From Candidatus Omnitrophota bacterium (GTDB lineage Bacteria > Omnitrophota > Gorgyraeia > Zapsychrales > Fredricksoniimonadaceae): a stretch of DNA of 64,000 bases. Position 1 is the stretch's first letter. Every line of letters starts with the position of its first letter. The position numbers and the translations under genes are program-made. Under the pieces are notes generated by a model. That model had not been told where the DNA came from, ran no database searches, and worked only from the letters and a program-made list of their open reading frames with translations. The DNA lies in NCBI GenBank assembly GCA_044225175.1, contig JBGAJA010000003.1, positions 69,428 through 133,427 of the forward strand, given 5' to 3'. Shown piece after piece: positions 8,725 to 58,194 of the stretch.

Positions 8725-8864
8725 GTTTTAGATCGTCATGAAACTAGACTTTGTCACCAAAATCTGATATAAGATTACTCTTCCAACCTCAAGGAAATTA
8801 GATACAAGAGATGTAAGGGGTTGTTAAGGGGAACAAAAAACGCAGTTTTCTGAGAGCGAGTTTT

Positions 8865-8938
8865 GTCCCAGTAGCTCAGTTGGATAGAGCATCTGCCTTC
8901 TAAGCAGAGGGTCGCACGTTCGATTCGTGCCTGGGACG
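8865..8938 (+). tRNA. tRNA-Arg (anticodon TCT)
   Basis: GTCCCAGTAGCTCAGTTGGATAGAGCATCTGCCTTCTAAGCAGAGGGTCGCACGTTCGATTCGTGCCTGGGACG folds as a 74-nt cloverleaf with anticodon loop CTTCTAA. Confidence 0.9.
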
Positions 8939-8989
8939 TTTATATTTGTTGAGAATCGAAGCTGTTTTTGATATTCTAGTGCCTCTTGT

Positions 8990-9066
8990 GGTGGCTGTAG
9001 CTCAGTTGGTAGAGTACTTGATTGTGGTTCAAGTTGTCGCGGGTTCAAATCCCGTCAGCCACCCCA
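8990..9066 (+). tRNA. tRNA-His (anticodon GTG) with encoded G(-1) and 3' CCA
   Basis: G-1 plus GTGGCTGTAGCTCAGTTGGTAGAGTACTTGATTGTGGTTCAAGTTGTCGCGGGTTCAAATCCCGTCAGCCACC, then CCA. Anticodon loop TTGTGGT. The extra 5' G pairing with discriminator C is the tRNA-His hallmark. Confidence 0.9.
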
Positions 9067-15467: not shown

Positions 15468-16019
15468 GTGAGAAATATTTTATTAGTTTTAATGAGTTTT
15501 TTGTTAGCTGGCTGTGCTGCTCTAGGCATCGAAAATTTACCTGGAACTATAAGTGAGCGTGTTTCTGGTTTTGATAACACTAAAGAAATAACTATGGAAC
15601 CAGCATGGATTACCGGTGGCCCCATTAAGCTGAATTTATATAAAACTTCTAAAATGGCAGAGAATGAAGCGATTTTAGTGGTCACCGTAAAAGGCGCCTA
15701 TAATTTTTCTAATAAAAGTTCCTTACAGATTAATATTGATGGGAATATAGTCACACTTGAGTCTATAGATGTGCTTACTGATGTTTCAACAGATCCGGGG
15801 GTGTACAATTCAGTTGTCTCTATTTCAGCAGAAAATTGGTCATCTAAACGGTATGAGGTTACAAAAGATCTTGTGAAGAAATTAATTGATGCTAAGGAGG
15901 CCTGGGTAAAAGTTAATTTATTTAAAGATTATGTTGAGGGGAACTTCTCAACAGATAAGCCTATGATGGCGCGACCAGCATTTAGGGAGTTTTATAAAAA
16001 AGCTTGGGAAGCTAAATAA
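15468..16019 (+). CDS. Lipoprotein (lipobox LLAGC)
   Basis: GTG start 15468 preceded by GGGGG; signal peptide (M)RNILLVLMSFLLAGC. The track ORF starts further upstream at TTG 15417. Confidence 0.55.
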   Translation: MRNILLVLMSFLLAGCAALGIENLPGTISERVSGFDNTKEITMEPAWITGGPIKLNLYKTSKMAENEAILVVTVKGAYNFSNKSSLQINIDGNIVTLESIDVLTDVSTDPGVYNSVVSISAENWSSKRYEVTKDLVKKLIDAKEAWVKVNLFKDYVEGNFSTDKPMMARPAFREFYKKAWEAK

Positions 16020-16110
16020 GAAGGGGGCAGATGAAGTAGATTATTTGTGCAGTAGGCATATTTTCTAGTATTTCTTTAAATGTTTTTGCTGCAGGAATAT
16101 AGGGAGGATT

Positions 16111-16380
16111 ATGAAAAATAAGATAAATAACTTGGATGTCGGTAAGAATAAGATGAAAGTGAGCCTGGAGTTAATGTTTGTGGTGGGAGCAATAGTATTC
16201 GTAGTTTTTTTTACATGGGTAACATTATTTTCAGGATTTCATGTAGCTCCATCTCAGGTGGGAACTGTGTTTATGACAATGGGTGTTTCGGTAATTGTAT
16301 TAATATTCTTTATAAATAGATTGATGCAACCAAAGATTCTTGAAGGGGGAATAAGGAGCTTGTTCTTAAGGAAGTCGTAG
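16111..16380 (+). CDS. Small two-TM membrane protein
   Basis: SD AGGGAGGATT immediately upstream of the ATG; two hydrophobic helices. Confidence 0.5.
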   Translation: MKNKINNLDVGKNKMKVSLELMFVVGAIVFVVFFTWVTLFSGFHVAPSQVGTVFMTMGVSVIVLIFFINRLMQPKILEGGIRSLFLRKS

Positions 16381-16400
16381 GAGTTGTTGGGCGTTTAGAA

Positions 16401-16814
16401 TTGCTGCCTGATAAGATTAGGATTTCAAGAAAAGGGGCTGGAGCGCTATTTACTCATGGATTTAAGGGTGATAAAGAAATCTTTATAAAGTATATTTCTT
16501 CAATTCAGTTTAAAAAGGCGGGTTTAATAATCAATGGATACATTCAGTTTGCCTTTTTAGGGGGACAGGAGTCAAAATCAGGTTTATATAGTGCCGTTCA
16601 AGATGAAAATACTATAGTGTTTAATTCTTATCAGCAGAAGGATTTTGAAGAAATAAAGGCTATGATTGAGTCTAAGATGGCGACCACAGAGAATAATAAT
16701 TCCTCAATAGATAAAAATTTGGAAGATTTAGAAAGATTGGCTAATTTGAAACAAAAGGGGATTCTTACTGAAGAAGAGTTTCAATTAAAGAAAGAACAAA
16801 TTTTGCGATTGTAA
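16401..16814 (+). CDS. SHOCT-domain protein with bacterial PH-like N-terminal domain
   Basis: C-terminal LERLANLKQKGILTEEEFQLKKEQIL matches the SHOCT motif. TTG start. Confidence 0.55.
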   Translation: MLPDKIRISRKGAGALFTHGFKGDKEIFIKYISSIQFKKAGLIINGYIQFAFLGGQESKSGLYSAVQDENTIVFNSYQQKDFEEIKAMIESKMATTENNNSSIDKNLEDLERLANLKQKGILTEEEFQLKKEQILRL

Positions 16815-16864
16815 AATAGTGGGATATTTTTGATTTATAAATTAAAAATGAAAGGTGAATAGAT

Positions 16865-17290
16865 ATGAAAAGAATTCTAGTTTTACTCTTGTGTTTTGGA
16901 TTGGTAGGGTGTGCGACGGTTCCATCTTTAGGAGAAAAATCAACATTATTAAAAGTTGGAATGTCTAAAAGTGAGGTTACTCAACTTTTGGGAGTTCCTA
17001 AGACTACTTCAGTGAATAAGACAGATGATGGTATTGTTGAGAAATGGTCATATTGGGTGAAAAAAATGGTTGGGTATGTAATGTTTGATGATCCCAATTT
17101 AGCTGGATTAGGCAATCGGTTAACGGTAACATTTAAGAATGACGTTGTTCAATCATGGGGTGATCAACTAGATTACAGTAATATGATTGATCAAAGTACA
17201 CAGGTCATGAAAGAAGCAATGAAGAATATGCAGCCAATTCAAGTTGAGCAAACAGTCTATCAAAGCAATAAAGCGGATTCTAAGAAGTAG
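16865..17290 (+). CDS. Lipoprotein (lipobox LVGC)
   Basis: MKRILVLLLCFGLVGCAT signal peptide/lipobox; SD AAAGGTGAA upstream. Confidence 0.6.
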   Translation: MKRILVLLLCFGLVGCATVPSLGEKSTLLKVGMSKSEVTQLLGVPKTTSVNKTDDGIVEKWSYWVKKMVGYVMFDDPNLAGLGNRLTVTFKNDVVQSWGDQLDYSNMIDQSTQVMKEAMKNMQPIQVEQTVYQSNKADSKK

Positions 17291-17449
17291 GCGTAGCACG
17301 CTGTCTTTTGACTTTTGTATTAGGATAAATAAGACCCTCTGGGATTTAATAAATTGCAGGGGGTTTTTATTTGGAGTAGACTTATAAGAATATGAATCGG
17401 GGGATATTGCTATTCGAATTTAAAGAACAGATGATAAAATTAAAGATCA

Positions 17450-18394
17450 TTGATGAATAAGAATTCTATTAAAAAACAATTAGCACAAGACCTGCCGGAT
17501 CGAATTAGATTTCTTTCTAGGAAGATTGCAAGAAAACCATCCTCATTTAGGTCAAGATGGGCCGTCTCTATAGATCAATCTTTTGATCTTTATACTAATA
17601 CAAGTACGGTCAATCTTATACAAAGCATCAATAATATGTTGGCTGAGGAAAATTGGCCTTTACCAGCATATCTTAATGCAAAGGGCGAAATATATAGACT
17701 TTCTCCTCTTCCAGGATTGATCAATTCTTTAAAGAGCTTCATTGGACTTAGCAGGCTTGTTTTAATTCTGATGTCTCTAAATGTTGGTCTAAATAAGAAG
17801 AAGACTTTTGATGCTCACATGTCTAACTTTTCTAGATTTTATGCAAAAGACATTTTCAGTGATTTAAAACTCAATCCTTTATTAAAAGAGAAAAGACTAA
17901 TTATTAATGAGATTGAGAAAGCGTATAGATTAAGAATGTGGGCAACATGTATTACTACTATGGTGCCTATATTTGATTTTGTTATGAGATCTTACTTTGG
18001 TTCTCAAGACCTGAAGATTTCTATTCAGACATTACGGGACGCTTTTGGAAAATCTGGTCTCAAGCCAAAAGATTTGAAGCCAGGTCATGCTATTTGGGAG
18101 GCGCGTGAAAATCCTCATAAAGGTAATACCTTTACCAAATCGATAGAAGAGGATCTTCGGCTTCCAGGCGTTTATTTATCTTCATTCTTTGAGTTCGCAG
18201 ATAGATACTACGGATGGTATGAATCTACGGATAACCCCGATGCTCTTCTCAATAGACATGCTATTATACATTGTTCTACAGGATGTTGGAACGAGCCTAA
18301 TGCGATCAGGCTGCTGACATTCTTAGATTTAACCCTTAAACTTGAGAATGTATTAAAAACTTTAATACATGGGGACACTTTTGTTGATACTTAA
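17450..18394 (+). CDS. Hypothetical protein, possible partner of the downstream DUF4238 protein
   Basis: 314-aa ORF. No recognised family. Confidence 0.45.
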   Translation: MMNKNSIKKQLAQDLPDRIRFLSRKIARKPSSFRSRWAVSIDQSFDLYTNTSTVNLIQSINNMLAEENWPLPAYLNAKGEIYRLSPLPGLINSLKSFIGLSRLVLILMSLNVGLNKKKTFDAHMSNFSRFYAKDIFSDLKLNPLLKEKRLIINEIEKAYRLRMWATCITTMVPIFDFVMRSYFGSQDLKISIQTLRDAFGKSGLKPKDLKPGHAIWEARENPHKGNTFTKSIEEDLRLPGVYLSSFFEFADRYYGWYESTDNPDALLNRHAIIHCSTGCWNEPNAIRLLTFLDLTLKLENVLKTLIHGDTFVDT

Positions 18395-36564: not shown

Positions 36565-39500
36565 TTAAGATTTACTTGCTGTAAGACAAGGGAGGGTAAA
36601 AGAAAACACTGAACCTTTACCATATTCTGAAGTTACAATCATCTTGCCTCCATGCCGCTCTACGATTTTTCTACATATTGCTAAACCAATCCCAATCCCC
36701 GAGTATTCTTGGCCATGGAGGCGGTTGAAAATATCGAAGATTTTATTTAAATCTTCTGGCTTAATTCCTATTCCATTGTCTGTGATGGAAATAAGCCATT
36801 CTTGATCTTGTCGAACGGCAGAGACATTGATAAGAGGGGTCGTATTACTTTTATATTTTAAAGCATTACTGATCAAGTTTTGGAAAAGTTGTATAAGTTG
36901 GGTTTTATTGCCTAAAACTACCGGAAGTTTATCGAAGGTGATCTTAGCACCAGTTTTTTTGATCTTAATTTGTAGATTAGTTAGAACCTGCTTCAAGCAT
37001 TGTTTGCAATCAACTTCTTTTAAAGGGGTTTTTACCTGTTCAATTTGGCAGAATTCAAGCAATTTGCTGATAAGTTCCTGCATGTGCGAAACGCTTGAGT
37101 TAATGTGGCTTATAAATTCTTTGGCTTTCTCATCTAATACTTTACCTACATATTTCTTCTCCAAGAGTTGAAGATAAGAGGAGACCACATTCAGTGGTTC
37201 TTTAAGATCATGAGAGGCCATAAAAGCAAATTGTTCAAGATCGGTATTACTCCGTTTAAGCTCTACGGCATCATTTCGAAAGCGGTTGAGGGATTGCCTG
37301 TGCTTAGTCACATCTTCAATTCCAATCAAGATTAAAGCATCTTTACCCTGTTTTTGTTCTAATCGTGTCGCATTAAGCAGCATGATACGATGACCCAGGT
37401 TTTGAAAATTGTGCTCAATTTCATAATTATCAATTCTTTGCTTTTGTGGCAATATTTCTTCAAGTAGAGTGCGTAATTCTGCAATGTCCCACTGTCCATT
37501 TCCTAAATTGTAGAAACATTTGCCTTCTGTCTCTTTCTCTAAGACTTCAAACGTCTTATAGAAGGAATGGTTAGCGATTTTAACCCGTAGGTCTTTGTCT
37601 AAGACGACCAAGTTTTCTCTTGCTGTCTGTACCATAGCCCTACAAAAATCATTCATTTCTTGAAGATGCAAATTAGTACGTTTAATTCCTTCGATGTCAT
37701 TTAATGTAAGAATAGCTCCTTCAATCTTATTATCGGCAGTTTTATTAGGAAGCACCCGAAGCATAAACCACTGTCCATCTGAAGTCTGTATTTCTTGTTC
37801 TTTAACAATCACTTTATGGATAACATCAAGAAGGATGCGATTTAAGTTGATAGCTTTGATAGCATGTAAATCATTCAGTGGCCTATTCAATTCATTTGGA
37901 AGGAATTGAAGAATTTGAGAAGCAGCCTCATTAAAGCGACGGATCTTAAGATCGTTTCCGATCATGATGATTGGGATTTTAGTGCCGTTAAGCAAATTTG
38001 TTAAATCATTGTTAAGTAAGTTTATCTCCCTACTTTGGGTCTGAAGTTCTTCATTGATCGTCGTGAGTTCTTCATTGGCAGATTGAAGTTCTTCCTTGGA
38101 CGTTTCTAATTCTTCATTAGTGCTTTGCAGTTCTTCATTGCTGGATAGAATTTCTTCATTAGCTGCATCCTGCTGTTCAATGATGGATTGAAGATATTCT
38201 CGGGCAGCAGTCAAATCCCTTCTTAATTGGATAATTTCCTTTTTCTGTTCATTAGGAGTTTGATTTTTTTCTTGAGAAACAGGAGCTTCAATATCTACGG
38301 GTTTTGAGGCTTCAAACAAGATTAAGAAACAGCTTTCATTTGTTTCCGGTAATTTAACCGGAATGATCTCGAGATGGGCAACATGTTCTTTAGATCCATC
38401 TTTAAATTTTATATTAGGCCTATTAACTGTGACATGGGTTTCTTTGGCTTCTCGGATCGCTGTTCCAAGTTCCAATGCCAAGTTTTCTTTAGCCATTCTA
38501 AGAATATGAAAAACTGCTTCACCTGTGGGAGGCTCTAAATACAAATTAGTCTTTCCTCGAAACTGTAGAATCTCAAGATTTTCATTAATCAATACTCCAG
38601 AAGGGGAGTAACGCCCAACAATGATGCGATCAGCTTCTTTTTGGAAATCTGCAGTTGTAGGTACTCTTTGACTATTAGCAGGGGAAGAAAGAACGTAATT
38701 TTTTGTATTCTTATCCATATAAAAATACGTCTCAGGACGAAGAGCAATAAGCTTTTTAGTATAAATATTAAGTTTTTTATCCAGGACATTGAATAAATTG
38801 GAATGAATGCCTACTGTTTCTGAATTTCCCAACACCAGAAAACCATTCGGATTAAGAGCGTAATGAAAAGTTTTCAAGACTCTTTGCTGGAGAGGATTGC
38901 TTAAGTAAATTAATAAATTACGGCATGTGATAACATCCACTCTGGAAAAGGGCGGGTCAGCCATAACGTTTTGTTTGGCGAATATGCACATTTCTCTAAT
39001 GAATTTATTGATACGGTATCCCCCAGTCTCTTTTGTAAAAAAACGGCGAAGACGACTTTCTGATACCTCTGTTTCAATACTTTCGGTGTAAAGCCCCAAC
39101 CGGGCCTTTTCGATGCATTTAGGATCATTGATATCTGTTCCAAAAATTTGGATGGTTGGAGGGGAAGGTTTATGATCAAAGTATTCAATAAGTAGCATAG
39201 CCAGAGAATATGCTTCTTGACCTGTAGAGCAACCAGGTGCCCACATACGGATAATAGAAGGATTATTTTTTGTTATCTCAGGCAGAACTTTATTTTTGAT
39301 TGCTTCAAATATTTCAGGATCTCTAAAGAAGCTGGTCACATTAATCAGGAGATCATGATGAAGAAGTTCGATCTCTTGGTGATTATTTTCCATGTAAGTC
39401 AAATATTCTGCCAGGGTTTGCTTGGCATGAAGGGTCATACGCCGCATAATCCTGCGTTTGATAGTGGTGTCTTTATAATTGGTAAAGTCAATACCAGTGG

Positions 39501-40179
39501 TTGTTCGCAAAAGGGACAGGATTTTATGGAAGTCATTTTCTTGTTCTGGAATTCTAGAATCTTCATCAGCAGTAGCTTTATTGCATAGATAAGGATGACG
39601 GACAATGTTGACTAATTCACGTGCAATTTCTTCAGGAGGCATAATAAAATCGATGGAACCGCTTTCAACAGCATTGCGAGGCATCAGCTGATATTCCGCT
39701 GACTTTTCATTTTGAGCAAAAGTAATGCCACCCGATGCTTTGATCTCTGCTACTCCTACAGTGCCATCGGATCCTGTGCCTGAAAGAATGACACCAATAG
39801 CTCGGTTCTTTTGCTCTGCTAAAGATCGGAATAAAAGATTAATAGGTAAATGTGGGGCTTGGGAATCTCCCCGAGGAGACAGCTTAAAAATATCCCCATT
39901 CAGTTCTACATTAACATTAGGAGGAGTTACATAAACATGATTAGGTTCTATCGTCATGCCATTTTTTATTTCACTTACTGGAATGTTCGTTGTTTTCGAT
40001 AGAATACTGGTGAGTTGACTTGGAAAATTTGGAGCAAGGTGCTGAACAAACACGAAGGCCATTTGAGGGTCTTCAGGTATGTTTGCTAGGAACTTTGTAA
40101 ATGCCTCTAAACCGCCTGCTGAAGCACCGATACCAACTATGGGAAATATTCTTTTTAATTTATTCATGACAAATATCAA
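36565..40179 (-). CDS. CheB methylesterase-CheR methyltransferase-PAS-coiled-coil-histidine kinase fusion protein
   Basis: CheB motif PIVGIGASAGGLEAF; CheR AdoMet-binding motif (RMWAPGCSTGQEAYS); PAS segments; heptad-like NEEL repeats (SNEELQSTNEELETSKEELQSANEELTTINEELQ); HisKA ASHDLKEPLN; HATPase_c GIGIGLAICRKIVERHGG. Confidence 0.8.
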   Translation of the reverse strand: MIFVMNKLKRIFPIVGIGASAGGLEAFTKFLANIPEDPQMAFVFVQHLAPNFPSQLTSILSKTTNIPVSEIKNGMTIEPNHVYVTPPNVNVELNGDIFKLSPRGDSQAPHLPINLLFRSLAEQKNRAIGVILSGTGSDGTVGVAEIKASGGITFAQNEKSAEYQLMPRNAVESGSIDFIMPPEEIARELVNIVRHPYLCNKATADEDSRIPEQENDFHKILSLLRTTTGIDFTNYKDTTIKRRIMRRMTLHAKQTLAEYLTYMENNHQEIELLHHDLLINVTSFFRDPEIFEAIKNKVLPEITKNNPSIIRMWAPGCSTGQEAYSLAMLLIEYFDHKPSPPTIQIFGTDINDPKCIEKARLGLYTESIETEVSESRLRRFFTKETGGYRINKFIREMCIFAKQNVMADPPFSRVDVITCRNLLIYLSNPLQQRVLKTFHYALNPNGFLVLGNSETVGIHSNLFNVLDKKLNIYTKKLIALRPETYFYMDKNTKNYVLSSPANSQRVPTTADFQKEADRIIVGRYSPSGVLINENLEILQFRGKTNLYLEPPTGEAVFHILRMAKENLALELGTAIREAKETHVTVNRPNIKFKDGSKEHVAHLEIIPVKLPETNESCFLILFEASKPVDIEAPVSQEKNQTPNEQKKEIIQLRRDLTAAREYLQSIIEQQDAANEEILSSNEELQSTNEELETSKEELQSANEELTTINEELQTQSREINLLNNDLTNLLNGTKIPIIMIGNDLKIRRFNEAASQILQFLPNELNRPLNDLHAIKAINLNRILLDVIHKVIVKEQEIQTSDGQWFMLRVLPNKTADNKIEGAILTLNDIEGIKRTNLHLQEMNDFCRAMVQTARENLVVLDKDLRVKIANHSFYKTFEVLEKETEGKCFYNLGNGQWDIAELRTLLEEILPQKQRIDNYEIEHNFQNLGHRIMLLNATRLEQKQGKDALILIGIEDVTKHRQSLNRFRNDAVELKRSNTDLEQFAFMASHDLKEPLNVVSSYLQLLEKKYVGKVLDEKAKEFISHINSSVSHMQELISKLLEFCQIEQVKTPLKEVDCKQCLKQVLTNLQIKIKKTGAKITFDKLPVVLGNKTQLIQLFQNLISNALKYKSNTTPLINVSAVRQDQEWLISITDNGIGIKPEDLNKIFDIFNRLHGQEYSGIGIGLAICRKIVERHGGKMIVTSEYGKGSVFSFTLPCLTASKS

Positions 40180-47130: not shown

Positions 47131-47293
47131 ATAAGCCCCTATTAAGCTAAAGTCTCTTCAACTTGGCTTGTAGAGGTTTGAATAAGATTCTGTTTTAATT
47201 CTATTTTCATCTATGCTTTATTTTTCCTATATTAAAATCTCTTAATTTTAAAGAGGCAGATATGTCTACTAATTTTATTTTTAGGAGCCGGGG

Positions 47294-48772
47294 ATGACAC
47301 AATCCAAATGCAAAACAGGTATTGGTGAGTTGGATAATATTTTAAATGGGGGGTTACCTCTTCATCGATTTTATCTTATTCAAGGAGACCCTGGGGTCGG
47401 AAAAACAACATTGGCTTTGCAGTTTCTTTTGCAAGGTTTAGCTGAAAAGGAGAAGGTTTTATATATCACATTATCTGAAACCAAAGAAGAGATTCAGATG
47501 GTCGCTCAATCACATGGCTGGTCTTTAAATGGGGTAGAGGTTATAGAACTTTCTACCTTAGAGGAAAACCTCTCTCCTGAGAAACAGAATACCCTTTTTC
47601 ATCCCTCTGAAGTCGAATTAAACCAAACCATTAAATTAATCCTAGATAAGGTCAAAGAATTTAAACCTTCTCGAGTCGTATTTGACTCTTTATCAGAAAT
47701 CCGCCTTTTATCACAAAATTCATTGCGTTATCGAAGGCAGATGCTGGGTTTAAAACAATATTTTGCTAAACTTAACTGTACTGTGTTGGTATTAGATGAC
47801 TGTACGGCAGGAGAAGAGTTACAGATTCGAAGTATCGCTCACGGGGTCATTATTCTTGAGAAGAATATCTTGGAATATGGAGTTTATCGTAGGCAGTTAC
47901 ACGTAGATAAAATTAGAGGAAGTCTTTTTAGAGAGGGGCATCACGATTTTATCATTCGTCCAGGCGGAATCTCTGTATTCCCTCGCTTGATTGCGAAAGA
48001 AAATAGCAAGACGTTTGTGAGGGAAACTGTTTCTACAGGCTTAAGAGAGTTTGATGATCTTCTAGGAGGAGGAATGCAAAGAGGAACGAGTAATTTGTTC
48101 TTAGGACCTCCGGGGGTTGGAAAATCTACTTTGGCTATGCGTAGTGCAGTTGCTTTAGCTGATCGTGGAGAAGATGTTTCAATCTATTGTTTTGATGAAA
48201 ACATAGGAACATATACTTCGAGAGCTGCAGCTTTGGGCATGGATATGAGTAAATATATAAAATCGGGGAAGATAAATATTACACAAATTAATGTCTCTGA
48301 GCTTTCGCCAGGAGAGTTTGCTTACCAAATCAAAGAGAATGTGGAGAAGAAAAATACAAGGCTAGTCATTATTGATAGTTTAAATGGATATCTAAATGCC
48401 ATGACTGAAGAGAGTCATCTCATTGTTCAACTCCATGAATTATTTGCGTATTTAAGTCATCAGGGAGTTATTTCTATCTTAATTGTAACCAATCAGGGTC
48501 TGTTTGGCAGTGCTATGAGTACCCCTGTTGAAGCAACTTACTTAGCGGATACAGCGGTCATCCTGCGGTTTTTTGAGACAAGGGGGGCTGTGAAAAAAGC
48601 TATTTCTATCATTAAGAAAAGAAGCAGCAGTATCGAAGATTCTATTCGCGAATTTAGCATTGATAAAGATGGCATTCAGATTGGAAAACCGCTCATCGAA
48701 TTTAAAGGTATTTTAACAGGAAATCCGACTTATTATGGGCTAGAACAGGATATTCTAAAAAGGACTTCATGA
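47294..48772 (+). CDS. kaiC: KaiC-like double RecA-fold ATPase (circadian-clock protein KaiC homolog)
   Basis: Two P-loops: GDPGVGKTTLALQF and GPPGVGKSTLAMRS. GIGELDNILNGGLP and TGLREFDDLLGGGM are KaiC/RadA-like motifs. Confidence 0.75.
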   Translation: MTQSKCKTGIGELDNILNGGLPLHRFYLIQGDPGVGKTTLALQFLLQGLAEKEKVLYITLSETKEEIQMVAQSHGWSLNGVEVIELSTLEENLSPEKQNTLFHPSEVELNQTIKLILDKVKEFKPSRVVFDSLSEIRLLSQNSLRYRRQMLGLKQYFAKLNCTVLVLDDCTAGEELQIRSIAHGVIILEKNILEYGVYRRQLHVDKIRGSLFREGHHDFIIRPGGISVFPRLIAKENSKTFVRETVSTGLREFDDLLGGGMQRGTSNLFLGPPGVGKSTLAMRSAVALADRGEDVSIYCFDENIGTYTSRAAALGMDMSKYIKSGKINITQINVSELSPGEFAYQIKENVEKKNTRLVIIDSLNGYLNAMTEESHLIVQLHELFAYLSHQGVISILIVTNQGLFGSAMSTPVEATYLADTAVILRFFETRGAVKKAISIIKKRSSSIEDSIREFSIDKDGIQIGKPLIEFKGILTGNPTYYGLEQDILKRTS

Positions 48773-50799
48773 AACTAGAAGAGCGTGTTCTTATTCTTGC
48801 CCCATTGGGAGACGATGCTCAGAATGCTGCAAATGTGCTTAGTCAATCCAATATTTTTGGCGAAATTTGTTTCAATTTAGAGGAATTAAACCAGAAATTC
48901 TTGAAAGGAGCAGGGGCTCTTATAATTACCGAAGAATCTTTAACGCATTTAGAAACAATGACTTTTATAGATTCATTGAAAGGACAGGAAAAATGGTCTG
49001 ATATTCCAATCATTATTATTACCAGTGGTGGAGAAACTACTGCTTTAAGTGTATCTATGATCAATTTATTTAGCGGGGTTGGAAATATTAATCTTTTGGA
49101 AAGGCCATTGAGGAAAATCACTTTAACATCCGCTGCGCAAGTAGCCTTGCGTACTCGGCAAAGGCAATTTCAAATGAAAGATTTATTAGAGGCCCACAAG
49201 AAAGCGGAGCAAGAAATTATACATTATGCCAATGAACTTCTAGAAGCTAATAAAGGTATGGAGCTGTTAGCTTCGATTGTATCTTCCTCAGATGATGCCA
49301 TTATCAGTAAAAATCTTGAGGGAATTATTATTAGTTGGAATATTGGAGCTGAAAGAATCTTTGGTTATAAGGCCCACGAGGTTATTGGTAAGCCTATCCA
49401 TATATTGTTTCCTAAGGACCGCTTCAACGAGGAGCCTGTTTTCTTAGAGCGGATCAAAAAAGGAGAAAGAATAGACCACTATGACACTGTCCGCCAATGT
49501 AAAGATGGGCGCCTAGTGGACATTTCTTTGACTATTTCACCCATTAGAGATGACAAGGGGGTCATTATTGGCGCCTCCAAGATTGCTAGAGATGTTACTC
49601 AACGCAAGAAACAAGAAAAGGAATTAAGAAGCCTCACCTTTCATCTAGAACAACGTGTGGAAGAGCGCACACACCTTTTGGAGGAGCAGGCTGAACGTCT
49701 GAGGCAATTGGCAGTTGAATTAACTGAGGTCGAGCAAAAAGAGCGCCGTCGGCTGGCTGAAGTGTTGCATGATCATTTGCAGCAATATTTGGTTGCAGCC
49801 AAGATGCGACTAGAGATGGTTGAACGTAAGGCAATTAAAGTTGATAAAGGGGGACTTGAGGATGCTCGTTTGTATATTGAGAATGCTATCGAATCTTCTC
49901 GTGTGTTAACCGCAGAACTGCGTCCCCCCGTACTTTATGAGGGTGGATTAACCGCAGGGTTACGTTATTTAGGTCAGAAAATGCAAGATCAGCATAAGCT
50001 GCGGGTCCATCTTTCCTTCTTAGAGGACATAGAGCCTGGTTCTGAATTGATCAAAGTCATGGTCTATCAATGTGTCCAGGAATTGCTATTTAATGCGGTT
50101 AAGTATGCCAACGTTAATGAGATTTTTGTAACAGCGACTAGGCTAGAGAAGAATCATATCCAGGTTAAGGTAGAAGATCATGGGGTTGGCTTTAATGTAA
50201 AGAGCCTAGGAAACAATACGACTGGTGGTTTTGGCTTATTTAGTATTCGAGAAAGAATAAAAGCCTTAGGGGGGGAATTTAAAATATCATCAATACCGCA
50301 GGAAGGTTCAGTATTTACTCTTATCGTTCCAGATAGAATCCCAGTCCCTGTTATAGGAAAAATAGATTTCAACGAAGAAAAATTATTTATGCGAGAAAGA
50401 GTACATAAAGAAGGAATAGTTGTGCTGGTTGCTGATGATCATTTAATTGTTCGACAGTCTATAGCCAGTCTTTTGATGTCCCAGACATTTATTAAGGAGG
50501 TTATTGAAGCGGGAAATGGAGAGGAAGCGATACGAAAAGCTGAATCTTCTGATCCTGATATCATTCTTATGGATGTGAACATGCCTATCATGAATGGTAT
50601 TGAAGCAACTAGAGTTTTGAGTAACAGAAAATCTCGTTCTAAGGTGATAGGTCTTTCAGTACAAGCCAAAAGTGAGATGGCACAAGCCATGAAAGATGCA
50701 GGTGCAGTTGCTTACTTCAATAAAGGTGACAACACGACTAGTTTGATTGATGCCATAAGAGACTTGGCCTACCCGCAATTGCCTTCTTCAAATAATTAA
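48769..50799 (+). CDS. Hybrid sensor kinase: receiver-like N-terminal domain, PAS, HisKA_3-type dimerisation domain, HATPase_c, and C-terminal receiver
   Basis: ATGA overlap with kaiC. H-box RRRLAEVLHDHLQQYL (NarX/HisKA_3 type). C-terminal REC domain VLVADDH...ILMDVNMP. The N-terminal 120 aa are receiver-like, but Glu replaces the acceptor Asp. Confidence 0.7.
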   Translation: MKLEERVLILAPLGDDAQNAANVLSQSNIFGEICFNLEELNQKFLKGAGALIITEESLTHLETMTFIDSLKGQEKWSDIPIIIITSGGETTALSVSMINLFSGVGNINLLERPLRKITLTSAAQVALRTRQRQFQMKDLLEAHKKAEQEIIHYANELLEANKGMELLASIVSSSDDAIISKNLEGIIISWNIGAERIFGYKAHEVIGKPIHILFPKDRFNEEPVFLERIKKGERIDHYDTVRQCKDGRLVDISLTISPIRDDKGVIIGASKIARDVTQRKKQEKELRSLTFHLEQRVEERTHLLEEQAERLRQLAVELTEVEQKERRRLAEVLHDHLQQYLVAAKMRLEMVERKAIKVDKGGLEDARLYIENAIESSRVLTAELRPPVLYEGGLTAGLRYLGQKMQDQHKLRVHLSFLEDIEPGSELIKVMVYQCVQELLFNAVKYANVNEIFVTATRLEKNHIQVKVEDHGVGFNVKSLGNNTTGGFGLFSIRERIKALGGEFKISSIPQEGSVFTLIVPDRIPVPVIGKIDFNEEKLFMRERVHKEGIVVLVADDHLIVRQSIASLLMSQTFIKEVIEAGNGEEAIRKAESSDPDIILMDVNMPIMNGIEATRVLSNRKSRSKVIGLSVQAKSEMAQAMKDAGAVAYFNKGDNTTSLIDAIRDLAYPQLPSSNN

Positions 50800-50887
50800 G
50801 CTATACAGAAAAGTTGTTGTATGGCAACAGCTCGTTGTATATACTCATTTTCTAACATTAAGTTTCAGAAAATTGAGTTTCTCCCAC

Positions 50888-51634
50888 ATGATTACAACAA
50901 ACAAGATTACAAAATTCTTTGGTTCCTTCCAAGCTCTCAAGGATGTCTCTTTTGAAATTAAAAAAGGAGAGATCGTTGGGTTCTTAGGACAAAATGGTGC
51001 AGGTAAGACAACATTAATGCGCATTTTGACATCCTACCTTCCAGCTTCATCTGGTTCTGTAATCGTAGATGGTAAAGACCTGAGTAAAAGTTCTTTATCT
51101 ATTCGTCAAATAATTGGGTATTTACCCGAGACCCCGCCTCTTTATATGAATATGACGGTGAAAGACTATTTGAAATTCGCAGCAGAGATCAAAGATATCC
51201 CTGTTAATAAATTAACTCGTCAGCTAGACAAAGTTTTAGAAGAATGCCAGCTTGTGGATGTTAAGAATAAGACAATAGGCATACTTTCAAAAGGGTATAA
51301 ACAACGGGTGGGAATTGCCCAAGCAATCATCCATGAACCAAAGCTTTTAATTTTAGATGAGCCAACCAGTGGTCTTGATCCTATACAAAATCTTCAGGTA
51401 CGTAAACTCATCAAAAGCCTCAAAGATGAACGAACAGTCATTCTAAGTACTCATATCTTGTCGGAAATTGAACAAATTACCAAACGTGTGATGATCATAA
51501 AATCTGGAGAAATTATCGTGGATGATTCTCTTGATGTTCTTCTTGGAAACAATCAAGATGATCTATCTAAACGTTTAAGCTTAGAAGAATTCTTTGTGAA
51601 ATGTCATATGCAAGCAGGGGACGTCCATGAGTAA
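50888..51634 (+). CDS. ABC transporter ATP-binding protein (ABC-2 type, GldA-like)
   Basis: Walker A GQNGAGKTT; signature LSKGYKQRV; Walker B LLILDEPTSGLD. A TTG at 50873 is an alternative start. Confidence 0.8.
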   Translation: MITTNKITKFFGSFQALKDVSFEIKKGEIVGFLGQNGAGKTTLMRILTSYLPASSGSVIVDGKDLSKSSLSIRQIIGYLPETPPLYMNMTVKDYLKFAAEIKDIPVNKLTRQLDKVLEECQLVDVKNKTIGILSKGYKQRVGIAQAIIHEPKLLILDEPTSGLDPIQNLQVRKLIKSLKDERTVILSTHILSEIEQITKRVMIIKSGEIIVDDSLDVLLGNNQDDLSKRLSLEEFFVKCHMQAGDVHE

Positions 51635-52340
51635 AACGATGATCATTGCCAAAAAAGAACTGTTGTCTTATTTCAAATCGCCTATTGCTTATATTATTCT
51701 GATTTTGACCATCTCTATTTTTAATATATTTTTTTATATGATCATTGATCAGAACAAGGAAGTTGCTTTGAAAGATGTTTTTCAGGTGATGGAGTTTATG
51801 TTTATCTTTTTAATTCCGTTACTTACTATGGGTGCTTTTGCTCAGGAGAAAGCCAGCGGTACGATGGAATTTTTAATGACAGCGCCTTTGACGAATAGCG
51901 CCATTGTTTTTGGAAAATATATTGGAGCTTTGATTTTTTTCTCAAGCCTGGTTGTTATGACATTTGCGTATTATGGCATTGTTGAATATTTTGGAACGCC
52001 TGATCGCCTGACAATCCTGACAGGTTATATGGGTGTTTGGTTGGAGGGAGCATTCTTTCTATCTGTCGGTATCCTGACATCTTGTTGGACGCGTAATCAA
52101 ATTGTCGCTGCCATTTCTTCCTATGCCATCTTGTTTTTTTTATATTTCTCGACTGGTTTTCTTAAATACTTTACAGGATCCATGGAAGTTATGATTCGTG
52201 CGTTAGGGACAGGAAGTCATTTAGAAAATTTGGCTGTAGGCATTATTACTGTTTCAGATATTGTTTACTATCTCAGTGGGATATTGGTATGCCTGTTTTT
52301 AACTCGTTTAAGTATTGAAAATAGATTATGGCAATCATGA
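51627..52340 (+). CDS. ABC-2 family permease (GldF-like)
   Basis: 6-TM pattern overlapping the ATPase stop. Confidence 0.65.
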   Translation: MSKTMIIAKKELLSYFKSPIAYIILILTISIFNIFFYMIIDQNKEVALKDVFQVMEFMFIFLIPLLTMGAFAQEKASGTMEFLMTAPLTNSAIVFGKYIGALIFFSSLVVMTFAYYGIVEYFGTPDRLTILTGYMGVWLEGAFFLSVGILTSCWTRNQIVAAISSYAILFFLYFSTGFLKYFTGSMEVMIRALGTGSHLENLAVGIITVSDIVYYLSGILVCLFLTRLSIENRLWQS

Positions 52341-53719
52341 AAAAATTTATCTTTATGTTTGTATGTGTTGTGGTGTCTTTTGGGCTTTGGCTTGGAATTA
52401 ACTATTTTACTTATTTGATTCCCGGCCAATGGGACGTCACACGTGCTAAGCAGCATACTTTAAAGGCCGGTACAATTTCTACTCTTAACAATTTAACGCA
52501 AGATGTTAAAGTTTCGGCTCTTATGGCTGGAATACCACCCAAATATTTAGAAGACCTTTTTAAAGAATATACAAAAGCTTCACGCGGAAAAATCACCACA
52601 GAAATCATTGATCCTATTCAACAAATTGGTTATGCGGCACAATTTGGCAATGTCATCAATGCTAAGGAAAGAAAAGTGTTTGTTACATCAGGCCAGCAGA
52701 AGAAAGAAATTTATTTTACCGATGCCCCACTTTCCCAAGAACAGTTGAATAATGCCATCAGCCAAGTCAACCAAGACAGGCGTTATGTTTATTTTTTAAC
52801 AGGACATGGAGAATTAAATATTGAGAGTAAGGATGACAAAGGCTTAGAAAAATTGGCTCGACTCATGGATTCCAATAACTTTGAATCTAAAAGCTTGATG
52901 CTGGGAATAACCAAGGAGATTCCAAAGGATTGTGCATTGCTTATTATTGCAGGTCCCCAGAATGATTTAACAAAACAAGAGAATGAAATTATTGAAGCCT
53001 ATCTAGAAAATGGCGGTCATGCGTTGTTTTTGATTGAAAATGTTATTGTCACCACCCCAGATAAACCTTTGACTCCAGAAGAGTTTAATAAGAATCCGTC
53101 TGTAAATGAGATTTTGAATAGTTGGGGTCTTAATGTGGAGTCCGACGTGGTGGTAGACTTAGCCAGCCATGCTGGTGATGATGTTGGAAGCCCTGCCACC
53201 AAGAACTATGTTAAACATCCTGCTCTCACACAGGGATTGGACTACACCTTTTATGTGCGTCCACGTACTATTTCTGTTATCAAGGAGCACCGTCCAACCA
53301 TTCAACTTGCACCCATTGTTTTGACCGCTTCTAAGAAAGAAAGCTGGGGGGAGTCTAATCGAACATTGAACGTCCACTTTGATGAAATCGAAGATAGACC
53401 AGGTCCAGTGGCTATTGCCTATGTGGTTTTTGAAAAAAAAGAAAAAGGTGATTTTTCGGATACTCGTCTGATTGTATTTACTGACGCTGATTTTCTATCG
53501 AATGCGTATATTAATCAATATAGCAACTCCCAAATGGGACTTAATATGATCAACTGGCTTACCGAAACGGATTACAAGGTCTTTGTTGATCAAGAGAACT
53601 TAAAAGTTGAACGATTAGATTTGACAAGCCAGCAAAAACGCAGCATTGCTTTAATTCTTTTGCTTATTCCTATCCTTATTGCTTTAGCCGGAATCATTGT
53701 CTGGGTAAAAAGCAAATAG
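52328..53719 (+). CDS. ABC transporter auxiliary component, GldG-like (ABC_transp_aux)
   Basis: N- and C-terminal TM anchors with a large periplasmic domain. Gene order is ATPase-permease-auxiliary. Confidence 0.55.
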   Translation: MAIMKKFIFMFVCVVVSFGLWLGINYFTYLIPGQWDVTRAKQHTLKAGTISTLNNLTQDVKVSALMAGIPPKYLEDLFKEYTKASRGKITTEIIDPIQQIGYAAQFGNVINAKERKVFVTSGQQKKEIYFTDAPLSQEQLNNAISQVNQDRRYVYFLTGHGELNIESKDDKGLEKLARLMDSNNFESKSLMLGITKEIPKDCALLIIAGPQNDLTKQENEIIEAYLENGGHALFLIENVIVTTPDKPLTPEEFNKNPSVNEILNSWGLNVESDVVVDLASHAGDDVGSPATKNYVKHPALTQGLDYTFYVRPRTISVIKEHRPTIQLAPIVLTASKKESWGESNRTLNVHFDEIEDRPGPVAIAYVVFEKKEKGDFSDTRLIVFTDADFLSNAYINQYSNSQMGLNMINWLTETDYKVFVDQENLKVERLDLTSQQKRSIALILLLIPILIALAGIIVWVKSK

Positions 53720-54562: not shown

Positions 54563-55876
54563 ATGAAAACTACAAAGAAGAAGATTATTAAGTCTCTCCA
54601 GAAGTTGGTGCCTGGCAAGGTTTCAAAGACGGAACGTGTGCGATTTCAAGAGGAAGCCGCTGATTTAAATAAAAGCAAGGACAGCTTGGGAAGAAGGATT
54701 AAGCAGCAGTCGAATCAGTTAAGTCTCAAAAATAAGCAGTTAAGACACGGAGCAGACAAGGCCCTTAGAGCAGAAGAACAGATCCATATCCTTACTAAAG
54801 CAATGGAAGCAACGGCAGATGGCATTTTTATTATCGATGTCAAAAAAGTTAATTTTCCTGTTATTTATTCTAATCAATCTTTTCATACAATGACTGGTTA
54901 TGCTAAGAAGGAAATCTTAGGTCGAAATTATTTTTTACTTTATGGTGCTGATGCAGATACGCGTATCATCGAGGAAATAAAATCTACAATGAATCAAGGT
55001 GAGTCTTTCCATGGAGAGATGCTTAGTTTTCAAAAAAATGGTAAGAAATATTGGAATTTATTGCGTATGGCCCCGGTACGTGATTCGAATGGGGAAGTTA
55101 CTCATTACGTAGGTATTCAGACAGATATTTCGCTGATGCGGCAAAGAGATTTAGAAATTAAAGAACAACGTGAAGAACTCCTGCATGTCACACGGGTGGG
55201 AAGGCTTGCTGAATTTGTTTCTTCTTTAGCCCATGAAATTAGCCAACCTTTGACAGCTATTCTTTCCTATGCTCAAGCAGCACAGCGTATTCTTGGTGAG
55301 CGTGAGCCTCAACTCAAGGAAATTTTTCAATATATCATTAATGATGACAAGCGTGCATCTGAGGTCATACGAAGGCTACGGGCCCTTTTAAAGAAGAGCG
55401 AACCTGAAATGAAGTTGATGGACATGAACGCTCTTATTAAGGAAACGATTGTATTTATTGCGACCGATGCTTCCGTCAGGAATAATATTTTAAAAATAGA
55501 TCTAGATCCAAATCTTCCACTGATTTATGGTGATCGTATCCAACTACAACAGGTGATATTAAATTTAATCAGTAACAGTTTCGATGCTATAAAGCCTAAT
55601 CAAGTTGTTCGTGACATTTCAATCAGTACATCCCGTAAAGACCTTGAGACAATTATTGTAAAGGTTAGGGATTCCGGATGCGGCATTCCTGCAGAAAACT
55701 TACCTAAACTTTTTATTCATTTTTTCACAAGTAAAGCAGATGGTTTAGGTATGGGTTTATCCATCAGTCGTTCGATTATTGAGGCGCATGGAGGACATCT
55801 GGAAGGTAAGAATAACTCTGATCAAGGGGTCACATTTTCATTTACGCTTCCTATTATCACAAAGGGTGACTCATGA
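54563..55876 (+). CDS. PAS-domain sensor histidine kinase (FixL/NtrB-like: PAS-HisKA-HATPase_c)
   Basis: PAS segment GIFIIDVKKVNFPVIYSNQSFHTMTGYAKKEILGRN; H-box LAHEISQPLTAIL; G-boxes in the C-terminus. Confidence 0.8.
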   Translation: MKTTKKKIIKSLQKLVPGKVSKTERVRFQEEAADLNKSKDSLGRRIKQQSNQLSLKNKQLRHGADKALRAEEQIHILTKAMEATADGIFIIDVKKVNFPVIYSNQSFHTMTGYAKKEILGRNYFLLYGADADTRIIEEIKSTMNQGESFHGEMLSFQKNGKKYWNLLRMAPVRDSNGEVTHYVGIQTDISLMRQRDLEIKEQREELLHVTRVGRLAEFVSSLAHEISQPLTAILSYAQAAQRILGEREPQLKEIFQYIINDDKRASEVIRRLRALLKKSEPEMKLMDMNALIKETIVFIATDASVRNNILKIDLDPNLPLIYGDRIQLQQVILNLISNSFDAIKPNQVVRDISISTSRKDLETIIVKVRDSGCGIPAENLPKLFIHFFTSKADGLGMGLSISRSIIEAHGGHLEGKNNSDQGVTFSFTLPIITKGDS

Positions 55877-56496
55877 TTAAACAGCCCATTGTTTATGTCA
55901 TTGATGATGACATCTCTGTATGTCGAGCACTTACGTTATTACTGACAAATCATGGATTTAAGGTGAAAACCTTTACACGCGCCGCAGACTTTTTGATTTT
56001 TAAGCATCTTAAAGGGCCTTCCTGTCTGGTTCTCGATTTAAAAATGCCACAAATCAATGGAATTGTCCTTCAGGATATCATGGCAACTAAAGAATTATCT
56101 ATTCCTATTGTTTTTATGTCCGCGCATGGGAGTATCCCAATTAGTGTAAAAGCCATCCAAGCAGGGGCTATTGATTTTTTGACCAAACCATTTACTGCGA
56201 AGAAATTATTGAATGCCATTGGACGCGCTATTGAAAGAAATAAGATTTTGACTAAGAGTCAGGCTGAAATATTAAGAATTGAAAGTCGTATAAAAAAGCT
56301 ATCTCCCCGAGAATTGGAGGTCTTTCATTTCGTCGCTCAAGGAATGATGAATAAACAGATTGCTTCAAAGCGGGGTACTTCCCTTCAAACAATTAAAGTC
56401 CATCGTGGGCGTGTTATGCAAAAAATGCAAGCTAAGACCGTTACGGAACTTATCGGCTTCGCCCAAAAGATTGGCATTGTCTCCCCTAAAGATTAA
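55873..56496 (+). CDS. Response regulator, REC plus LuxR-type HTH (FixJ/NarL family)
   Basis: VYVIDDD...LDLKMP receiver. C-terminal LSPRELEVFHFVAQGMMNKQIASKRGTSLQTIKVHRGRVMQKM. Overlaps the kinase stop. Confidence 0.85.
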   Translation: MIKQPIVYVIDDDISVCRALTLLLTNHGFKVKTFTRAADFLIFKHLKGPSCLVLDLKMPQINGIVLQDIMATKELSIPIVFMSAHGSIPISVKAIQAGAIDFLTKPFTAKKLLNAIGRAIERNKILTKSQAEILRIESRIKKLSPRELEVFHFVAQGMMNKQIASKRGTSLQTIKVHRGRVMQKMQAKTVTELIGFAQKIGIVSPKD

Positions 56497-56565
56497 TTCT
56501 TCGTCGATATTGTATTATACCTCGGTACAATTGATTCATTTCTGTCTTTCCCTAAAATAACTTTT

Positions 56566-56967
56566 ATGCAACTCGAGAAAATGGAACTTAAAGGATGGAA
56601 CGAGGCGTCAGAAAAAAAACACATTTATATTGTCGATGACGATGACTCAGTGCGCCGCGCACTGAAATTGTTGCTTGTTACATATGGTTTTGAAGTAGAA
56701 ACTTTTTCTTCAGCAGAGGGATTCTTAAGAGAAGTTCCAGACAGCGCTATTGGATGTTTAATCTTAGATATTCATATGCCGGGATTAAATGGATGGGAAA
56801 CGCTGCAGCGTTTATATAATTCGGGATCTAAACGTACAGTCATTGTGGTTTCAGCTGCGAAAAATGGCGGCTTAACGGAACAAGCTTTAAAAGCAGGAGC
56901 CAAAGGCTTCTTACAAAAACCATTCAATGACCAAGATCTGATCAATATGGTTAATAAAGAGTGCTAA
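56566..56967 (+). CDS. Single-domain response regulator (REC only)
   Basis: IYIVDDDDSVRR ... LILDIHMPGLNG ... KPF receiver motifs. Confidence 0.75.
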   Translation: MQLEKMELKGWNEASEKKHIYIVDDDDSVRRALKLLLVTYGFEVETFSSAEGFLREVPDSAIGCLILDIHMPGLNGWETLQRLYNSGSKRTVIVVSAAKNGGLTEQALKAGAKGFLQKPFNDQDLINMVNKEC

Positions 56968-56976
56968 AAGGAATTC

Positions 56977-57426
56977 ATGATGGGGAAAAAGATTATTGTT
57001 ATTGATAATGAGCCATTGTTTCCAAACTTGATTAAACAATTGCTGGAAGATGAGAAGGACTTCAAAATTTCTAAGATTACGGCCACTAAAGAAGAGTTTT
57101 TGAAGGAGATTGAGCAAAACTCATTTGATGTTGCTCTTGTAGATATTTCTGTTGGAGAACGGGAAGGTGGTTTGGATATATTACAAATATTGAGAAATCA
57201 AAAAGTACCATTGCCCGCAATTGTTTTGTCCGCTCACAGTGAAATGGATTACGGTTTAAGATCTCTGCAAGCGGGAGCTAGAGGATATGTGAGTAAAGGA
57301 GAGATTAGTTCTTCTTTAATTAAAGCTTTAAGACAGGTATGTAACGGTGATTTATTTGTCGCAGGTGATAAGGGAATGGAGATTTTAAACCAATATAGAA
57401 AAGTGACGACTTTCCATATTAAGTGA
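56977..57426 (+). CDS. Single-domain response regulator (REC only, divergent)
   Basis: IIVIDNEP ... VALVDISVGEREGGLDIL ... AIVLSAH receiver-like pattern. Confidence 0.65.
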   Translation: MMGKKIIVIDNEPLFPNLIKQLLEDEKDFKISKITATKEEFLKEIEQNSFDVALVDISVGEREGGLDILQILRNQKVPLPAIVLSAHSEMDYGLRSLQAGARGYVSKGEISSSLIKALRQVCNGDLFVAGDKGMEILNQYRKVTTFHIK

Positions 57427-57435
57427 GAAAGAAGG

Positions 57436-58194
57436 ATGTTTATGGGTTCAGAGATTCTTCATATACCCAAAAATCGCATTGGCTCACAAGATAAGACCTT
57501 AACGACCGATGAACTAATCAGGTCCAATAGAGAACTTGAACAATTTGCTTTTACAGCATCTCACGATCTTCAGGAACCTTTAAAAGCTATTTCTCTTTAT
57601 CTTCAACTTTATCATAAGAAATATAGCGGAAAACTGGGTGATCAGGCTGATGAAGCTATTTCTAGAATTCTAGATAAGACGAACAGAATGCAAAAATTAA
57701 TTCAAAATATATTGAATTATTCTCGAGTTGGAAAAGAAGATGTTGAGTTGGTGAAGCTAAATTCAGATCTTATTCTTAAGCGTGCGATTGGAAATTTGAA
57801 TGCAACTATTAAAGAAAATTTAGCACAGATTACACACGAAACTCTTCCTATCGTTATGGGAAATAATATTCAATTGATGCAATTATTTCAGAACTTAATT
57901 AGTAATGCCATTAAGTTCTCCAAAGGTGACGATTTTCCTCGTATTCATATTTCTTTTGTGCAAAAAGATCGCCAGTGGGTATTTTTAGTTCAAGATAATG
58001 GAATAGGGATTGCTCAGAAAGATATTCAGAAGATCTTTGATATTTTTCATCGATTACACAGCTCTAGTGAATATGGAGGAAATGGAATAGGCCTTGCACT
58101 ATGTAAAAGAATTGTTGAATCTCATGGGGGAAAGATCTGGATCGAATCAGAAGTAGGGAAAGGAACAGCTGTTTATTTTACGATGGGGATTTAG
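57436..58194 (+). CDS. Soluble histidine kinase (HisKA plus HATPase_c, no sensor domain)
   Basis: The H-box [22 protein letters not shown] is the same ASHDL.EPL subtype as the CheB/CheR kinase. [24 protein letters not shown]. Confidence 0.8.

Follow-up and report, generated by a model that had tools for sequence, protein, structure and literature searches.

The window analysed here, a stretch of 64,000 nucleotides (nt) from a contig of a Candidatus Omnitrophota bacterium (JBGAJA010000003.1, assembly GCA_044225175.1) with a GC content of about 39%, carries a homologue of the circadian clock gene kaiC that is followed at once by the gene of a hybrid sensor histidine kinase. The first domain of this kinase (the N-domain below) is a pseudo-receiver, and its relatives accompany one particular subfamily of KaiC homologues in a wide range of bacteria. 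The features of the pair, all on the forward strand, are as follows.

47283..47287, + strand: Shine-Dalgarno-like AGGAG, 6 nt 5' of the kaiC ATG, read from the sequence
47294..48772, + strand: kaiC homologue, 492 amino acids; double-domain KaiC of the SY/TY ('group I' / Nt_HK-linked) subfamily
47309..47986, + strand: KaiC CI half, residues 6-231; Walker A G31-T38 (K37), Walker B D131
48011..48736, + strand: KaiC CII half, residues ~240-481; Walker A G271-S278 (K277), Walker B D361
48536..48541, + strand: codons of T415-Y416, equivalent to the phosphosites S431-T432 of Synechococcus elongatus KaiC in a MAFFT alignment
48769..48772, + strand: ATGA in which the kaiC stop and the kinase start overlap (translational coupling); AAGGA at 48760-48764
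48769..50799, + strand: hybrid sensor histidine kinase, 676 amino acids
48769..49113, + strand: pseudo-receiver at the N-terminus, residues 1-115; fits the description of 'RtaNt' in De Luca et al. (2011)
49114..49245, + strand: long helix extending alpha5 of the pseudo-receiver, residues 116-159, with the motif ALRxRxRQ(Y/F); junction to the kinase core
49261..49608, + strand: PAS domain, residues 165-280; PAS_9 1.2e-16, TIGR00229 3e-28
49741..49935, + strand: HisKA_3 dimerisation/phospho-acceptor domain, residues 325-389; H-box LHD, H334
50062..50334, + strand: HATPase_c, residues 432-522; N442, G1 box D470xGxG, G2 box G486-L490
50422..50760, + strand: genuine C-terminal receiver, residues 552-664; PF00072 7.9e-25; D556-D557, D602, S630, K652
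50812..50832, + strand: hairpin, weakly terminator-like, 13 nt past the kinase stop; 9-bp stem with 3 GC pairs and a poor T-tail

A probable two-gene operon of kaiC and a hybrid kinase

The kaiC homologue and the kinase gene are a genuine pair, arranged as a two-gene operon. Their junction reads TCATGAAA, in which ATGA is common to the ATG of the kinase and the TGA stop of kaiC, and AAGGA is located 4 nt 5' of the kinase ATG. A coupling of this kind had been proposed in the original prediction, and both open reading frames lie exactly where it had placed them, with the ATGA overlap legible in the sequence. The sigma-70-like match at 47204-47233, 5' of kaiC, did not score above chance in a promoter scan; the hairpin at 50812..50832 could mark the end of the operon, which is suggestive only.

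The predicted double P-loop architecture of the KaiC homologue is borne out by a Walker A motif in each half and by two stretches matching the Pfam family KaiC (PF06745, E=3.7e-74). The protein is 25% identical to KaiC of S. elongatus and 41-56% identical to the KaiC homologues of the loci that carry the N-domain (see below). It departs from canonical circadian KaiC in several respects, namely its scores against the NCBIfam equivalog models (238 versus a cutoff of 408 bits for NF006799, 162 versus 546 for TIGR02655), its catalytic glutamate pairs, its phosphosites and its C-terminal tail. S61-E62 replaces the pair E77-E78 of CI and D301-E302 the pair E318-E319 of CII; T415-Y416 stands at S431-T432, while T410 aligns with T426; and the protein stops approximately where the C-terminal tail of S. 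elongatus KaiC (the A-loop region) starts, about 25 residues short. The S. elongatus reference used in the alignment was checked and is identical to PDB entry 1u9i.

The replacements at the catalytic pairs and the phosphosites are those of a subfamily. Across an alignment of 71 family members, the window's protein included, the Walker A lysines and Walker B aspartates of both halves are conserved in all 71. The family also retains both arginine fingers and, in each half, one catalytic Glu: Ser stands at E77 and E78 is kept, and mostly Asp stands at E318 and E319 is kept. Position 431 (S. elongatus numbering) is Ser in 52 members and Thr in 18, and position 432 is Tyr in 70, so that 70 of the 71 read SY or TY. 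A set of KaiC homologues collected from metagenomes gave a similar picture at positions 431/432 (SY 58, TY 15, SF 1).

The domains that had been predicted for the kinase beyond its first 120 residues, i.e., PAS, HisKA_3, HATPase_c and a genuine C-terminal receiver (REC), were all found with their catalytic residues. The H-box His, the N, G1 and G2 boxes, and the acidic pair, acceptor Asp, Ser/Thr and Lys of the receiver are each present, as in HisKA_3 hybrid kinases.

As the original prediction had claimed, kaiB is not found near the pair: a six-frame translation of the whole window contained no KaiB-like sequence (best tblastn E=1.7), a search that did not extend to kaiA. The KaiB query had been validated on the KaiB entries of the PDB, with those of Rhodobacter and Legionella among them. 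The 164 related loci tested yielded no kaiB either.

The N-terminal pseudo-receiver and its linkage to KaiC

Residues 1-150 of the kinase have no Pfam match at E<=0.01, and a sequence search of the PDB with the N-terminus returned weak receiver matches (2zay, E=0.008). An AlphaFold2 model of the N-domain, built from 78 family sequences, has a mean predicted local distance difference test (pLDDT) score of 93.8 and a predicted template modelling (pTM) score of 0.86; in it, a (beta-alpha)5 fold leads into a single long helix over residues 116-159. The best matches of this model in a Foldseek search of the PDB are the ordinary receivers NtrX, PhoB, CheY, WspR and RssB (E=1e-5 for NtrX, PhoB and CheY). 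Alignment with CheY by hhalign runs in register over the full domain, pairing A11-P12 with D12-D13, E55 with D57, T85 with T87, and R112 with K109, with R112-P113 opposite the Lys109-Pro of CheY. Among the receiver active-site residues, T85 alone is retained, and the acidic pair, the acceptor Asp and the Lys are replaced. The domain is therefore a pseudo-receiver, and the earlier description of the first 120 or so residues as receiver-like, with Glu in place of Asp, holds for residues 1-115 with E55 at the acceptor position.

The domain is unrelated to KaiB. The hhalign comparison of its profile with KaiB gave a probability of 0.1% over 10 columns (SasA-N was not compared by sequence), and no KaiB, SasA, KaiA or CikA entry occurs among the top 50 Foldseek matches. 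The structure and profile check that had been proposed for this domain thus yielded a receiver fold and no similarity to KaiB. The accompanying analogy with KaiC-interaction domains of the KaiA/CikA type proved loose: ordinary receivers match best and KaiB similarity is absent. Like the N-domain, the pseudo-receivers of CikA and KaiA have a receiver fold without the phospho-acceptor Asp and act in Kai-system signalling, but they are missing from its top 50 structural matches. Nor are they the parts of those proteins that contact KaiC. The partner of the CikA pseudo-receiver is KaiB, and in KaiA it is the C-terminal domain, not the N-terminal one, that binds KaiC. SasA-N, for its part, shares the thioredoxin-like fold type of KaiB.

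The N-domain defines a large family for which Pfam has no model and which is located at the N-terminus of kinases. A word-indexed search with the domain gave only 2 relatives, and an exhaustive search was required: with HMMER, 3722 cluster representatives were found at E<=1e-3 and 2267 at E<=1e-10. In all 150 matches listed, the aligned region starts at residue 90 of the protein or earlier. When 80 representatives were scanned, HATPase_c was present in 76, HisKA in 71 and HisKA_3 in 5, and PAS, GAF and REC were variable. The family is marked by the motifs LAPxGxDA, (A/T)EE(A/S)L, QxxWSDxP (QPxWSDxP), TSGGE (LTSGGE) and LLERPxR, and by the longer conserved stretches GNVTLLERPxR..TL and ALRARRRQYxVRDLL. 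The domain of the window's kinase is 37-45% identical to 30 family members and carries all of the motifs.

Two independent scans indicate that this domain and the S/T-Tyr KaiC subfamily are paired far beyond chance. The first covered one genome per species, used peptide patterns drawn only from the N-domain (a 10-sequence subset) and gave 80 loci. A KaiC homologue 41-56% identical to that of the window lies directly upstream on the same strand in 79 of the 79 testable loci; in the 80th, the DNA on that side extends for only about 115 nt. The second scan used a KaiC-only pattern on metagenomes and also gave 80 loci, 74 of them with enough downstream DNA, and the N-domain lies directly downstream of kaiC in 73 of these. 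The genome loci come from Acidobacteriota, Verrucomicrobiota, Gemmatimonadota, Planctomycetota, Myxococcota, Bdellovibrionota, Fibrobacteria, Actinobacteria, Abditibacterium, and Alpha- and Betaproteobacteria, with Burkholderiales members among them, and the two-way linkage spans more than 10 phyla.

Across the genome loci, no gene families other than those of KaiC and the kinase are conserved, and a search of the related loci for a third conserved gene around the pair (response regulator, EPS sortase or CsrA) found none. Response-regulator genes seldom adjoin the pair, and 22 of 63 kinases are hybrid. With start codons called heuristically, the two genes overlap in 39 of 65 family loci, and in 59 of 65 the kinase gene begins at most 40 nt beyond the end of kaiC. 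The shortest kinases, of 380-410 amino acids (18 of 65), have room only for the N-domain, the dimerisation and histidine phosphotransfer (DHp) domain and the catalytic (CA) domain, and the N-domain is therefore their sole candidate input domain.

An arrangement of this kind was defined as the 'second kaiC-context', in which kaiC is followed by a kinase gene, Nt_HK, and kaiB is lacking (De Luca et al., 2011; PMC3164672). The kinases concerned share the N-terminal 'RtaNt', 19% identical to a receiver domain, and were proposed to be a SasA-like family of KaiC-interacting kinases; no kaiB occurred anywhere in the genomes having this context (De Luca et al., 2011; PMC3164672). The type example, Rta_04330/Rta_04340 of Ramlibacter tataouinensis, is co-transcribed (PMC3164672) and agrees with the window in its SY/TY KaiC, the same-strand kinase that comes next, the receiver-like N-domain, the lack of kaiB, over 64 kb in the case of the window, and the variable PAS, GAF and REC domains. 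We tentatively equate 'RtaNt' with the N-domain family on the basis of matching descriptions and of the Burkholderiales loci. Two differences are to be noted: De Luca et al. (2011) suggested that the domain resembles KaiB and SasA-N, whereas no similarity to KaiB is found here, and HisKA_3, the type found in the window's kinase, occurs in few members of the N-domain family (5 of 80).

The second precedent is experimental. In a study in which 1255 Pseudomonas genomes yielded no KaiB, Terrettaz et al. (2022; bioRxiv 10.1101/2022.01.26.477890) described a group I of Pseudomonas KaiC with TY or SY and an adjoining kinase, and reported a strong two-hybrid interaction between KaiC and kinase in P. 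protegens (CHA0), together with a phosphorylation of KaiC in stationary phase that follows culture age and not circadian cues. Group I resembles the window in its TY/SY at 431/432, its adjacent kinase and, as far as the 64 kb of the window go, its lack of KaiB; it differs in that the window's kinase has a receiver fused to it, and the binding domain of group I has not been mapped. The window pair shows every testable feature of the KaiC(S/T-Tyr)-Nt_HK module. As this module has been on record since 2011 and was the subject of experiments reported in 2022, the pair is not a new system, and the earlier remark that such an architecture is not well characterised outside cyanobacteria applies to its mechanism and not to its description.

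Proposed readout of KaiC and competing explanations

In our judgement, the kinase probably reads the state of KaiC directly through its pseudo-receiver, without KaiB. A dedicated kinase of this sort had already been put forward in the original prediction, and the two-way linkage, taken with the published binding in Pseudomonas group I, lends the idea strong support. Direct readout is also favoured because the proteins closest to the kinase core in sequence are kinases encoded in Kai operons. These relatives are 65-70% identical, lack the pseudo-receiver and become similar only from residues 145-155, inside the linker helix; the core shared with the KaiB-linked ones is PAS-HisKA_3-HATPase_c-REC. 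They are placed as follows.

P0012, P0007, P0010: behind kaiC-kaiB-kaiB
P0006: behind kaiB
P0005, P0023 (more distant): no Kai neighbours

In the four Kai-linked kinases, an N-terminal PAS-like region stands where the window has its pseudo-receiver. Their operons (L086, L087, L089 and L090, kaiC-kaiB(-kaiB)-kinase; L088, kaiB-kinase) represent the 'first kaiC-context' of De Luca et al. (2011). As in the window, the kinase start overlaps the stop of the preceding gene; unlike the window, they have one or two kaiB genes and a different KaiC subfamily. The KaiC of L086 is 25% identical to that of the window and 36% to that of S. elongatus; its catalytic pairs are EE/EE, and SS stands at the phosphosite positions. 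Just one close full-length relative is arranged like the window's kinase, P0004 (61% identical), which also follows a kaiC (its product 52.6% identical). Since a core 65-70% identical is found behind kaiB, one output-kinase core has been joined to two KaiC subfamilies via different adapters, separate KaiB proteins in one case and a fused pseudo-receiver in the other, and this observation appears to be new. Three of these operons (L086 1886-6130, L089 1884-6148, L090 1926-6130) have the order kaiC-kaiB-kaiB-kinase with two tandem, tightly packed and mostly overlapping kaiB genes, the first KaiB of L086 carrying an N-terminal extension of about 20 residues; L088 has no kaiC immediately upstream of its kaiB.

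The working scheme would run as follows. The KaiC homologue, presumably a hexameric double-ring ATPase and autokinase, would shift its state by ATP hydrolysis and by phosphorylation of T415 and perhaps of Y416. The kinase would sense this state directly, its non-phosphorylatable pseudo-receiver docking on KaiC, and the long helix continuing alpha5 would relay the signal via PAS to the HisKA_3/HATPase_c core. Autophosphorylation of H334 would thereby be altered, with transfer to the kinase's own receiver at D602 and on to a downstream partner. Inferred in this scheme are the docking of KaiC on the N-domain, the direction in which control runs and the physiological output, which may be stress or long-timescale 'hourglass' signalling and not a circadian oscillator. 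The cyanobacterial KaiC-SasA-RpaA pathway offers a parallel, in that an N-terminal non-catalytic domain of the kinase is dedicated to KaiC and the state of KaiC is likewise converted to phosphotransfer. On the other hand, the N-domain of SasA is thioredoxin/KaiB-like, whereas here a receiver fold without KaiB similarity is found; the kinase gene here lies within the kaiC operon; and the KaiC has no equivalents of E77 and T432 and no long C-terminal tail.

Several observations weigh against this scheme. The N-domain resembles no fold known to contact KaiC, its best matches being ordinary receivers. One genuine member of the kinase family, P0081 (132 bits with the family profile), has no adjoining kaiC, and one TY-type kaiC, at L169, has no kinase after it, the sole such case in the subfamily. 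In P. putida, whose KaiC belongs to another group, the N-terminal 138 residues that bind KaiC were called PAS, which points to other modes of contact (bioRxiv 10.1101/2022.01.26.477890). Finally, the kaiB search reached 64 kb of the genome, and a more distant kaiB is possible.

The two exceptional loci deserve a brief description. P0081 (L002 7153-9619; also in L003 and L004) has the same architecture as the window's kinase, with a somewhat degenerate pseudo-receiver (LASHRLD, SDAL, LLVDRDS); csrA lies 200 nt upstream and a NarL-type regulator is divergent, with no kaiC among the neighbours. Its setting recalls the association of Pseudomonas group III KaiC with CsrA (Terrettaz et al., 2022). 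At L169, no convincing open reading frame occurs in the roughly 1.5 kb after the kaiC (157-1164), and a LysR-type regulator on the opposite strand comes next; the missing kinase is possibly due to a deletion.

Among the alternatives, a reversal of control fares best, although we regard it as unlikely. The pseudo-receiver would then act on KaiC as KaiA or KaiB does, with KaiC as the regulated output, and mutual feedback would be possible. Tight linkage shows that the two proteins work together and not in which direction, the PAS sensor of the kinase could supply an input, and the kinase core of the sister operons follows kaiC-kaiB-kaiB, KaiB being a regulator of KaiC in cyanobacteria. However, the shortest family members have the N-domain as their only sensor, which fits KaiC as the input; the kinases attached to KaiC in cyanobacteria, SasA and CikA, are outputs; and the N-domain has no similarity to KaiB.

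Still less probable is that the pseudo-receiver is merely a dimerisation or autoinhibitory module, dimerisation being a frequent role of pseudo-receivers, while KaiC contacts the PAS or DHp domain or the two proteins are just co-expressed. The retention of the domain in P0081, without an adjoining kaiC, would fit such a role, as would the PAS annotation of the KaiC-binding fragment of P. putida (bioRxiv 10.1101/2022.01.26.477890). Yet PAS, GAF and REC vary among the kinases behind SY/TY kaiC genes, of which 22 of 63 are hybrid and some are minimal at about 390 amino acids, and the N-domain is the one element common to all of them; moreover, the closest cores without the domain are preceded by kaiB, as if the domain and KaiB were alternative couplers. 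The last alternative, a canonical timer of the KaiBC type whose kaiB lies beyond the window, finds some room in a contig of at least 272 kb of which 64 kb were seen and in the kinship of the kinase core with KaiB-operon kinases, but it is very improbable, as kaiB is near none of the 164 related loci, is absent from the genomes with the second context (De Luca et al., 2011; PMC3164672) and from the 1255 Pseudomonas genomes (bioRxiv 10.1101/2022.01.26.477890), and the window's KaiC differs in catalytic pair and phosphosite from the KaiB-linked KaiC of L086, to which it is only 25% identical.

Direct readout through the pseudo-receiver being thus preferred, a further-reaching proposal may be attached to it, for which we have less confidence than doubt: that the pseudo-receiver is a built-in replacement of KaiB, spliced to the core near residue 150, by which an output kinase that sister lineages couple to a KaiB-dependent KaiC is here attached to a KaiB-independent one bearing the Tyr, and that the Tyr at 432 is a possible second phosphosite, on tyrosine.

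Neighbouring genes and significance

About 4 kb downstream of the pair lies a two-component cluster (54563-58194, + strand) with the following genes.

54563..55876, + strand: FixL-like PAS kinase, overlapping the next gene
55873..56496, + strand: FixJ-like REC-HTH (receiver and helix-turn-helix) regulator
56566..56967 and 56977..57426, + strand: two single-domain receivers
57436..58194, + strand: short kinase

Receivers of the NarL/FixJ type are the usual partners of HisKA_3 kinases, and it may be speculated that one regulator of this cluster could partner the KaiC-linked kinase. Directly after the kinase gene, an ABC transporter operon (50873-53719, + strand) encodes GldA-, GldF- and GldG-like proteins, all scoring under the equivalog cutoffs; it is not conserved beside the kaiC-kinase pair in other loci. 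On the opposite strand, at 36565-40179, a 1204-amino-acid protein joins CheB-like and CheR-like regions to PAS and histidine kinase domains, and its open reading frame contains a 21-nt tandem repeat of 5.7 copies (38042-38160). The region 16000-18000 combines low GC (0.336) with high GC skew (0.306) and has several small proteins and no RNA family match; two of these proteins have apparent lipoprotein-type signal sequences, as read from their translations. An Rfam scan of the window found three tRNAs and no other RNA family.

2460-2534, - strand: tRNA-Pro(TGG)
8864-8939, + strand: tRNA-Arg(TCT)
8991-9066, + strand: tRNA-His(GTG)

KaiC homologues are common in non-photosynthetic bacteria, where they signal without KaiA or KaiB. 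The N-domain and the S/T-Tyr KaiC constitute an almost obligate pair across many phyla, and the picture is sharpened here in that the kinase's N-domain is a receiver-fold pseudo-receiver and is not KaiB-like. The kinase core shared with the kaiC-kaiB-kaiB operons also gives constructs for further work, namely the N-domain as residues 1-160 and a splice near residue 150. If the pseudo-receiver does replace KaiB, the two operon types would amount to a natural domain-swap experiment on signalling from KaiC to a kinase outside cyanobacteria, and the invariant Tyr 432 may be a phosphosite of a RecA-family autokinase.

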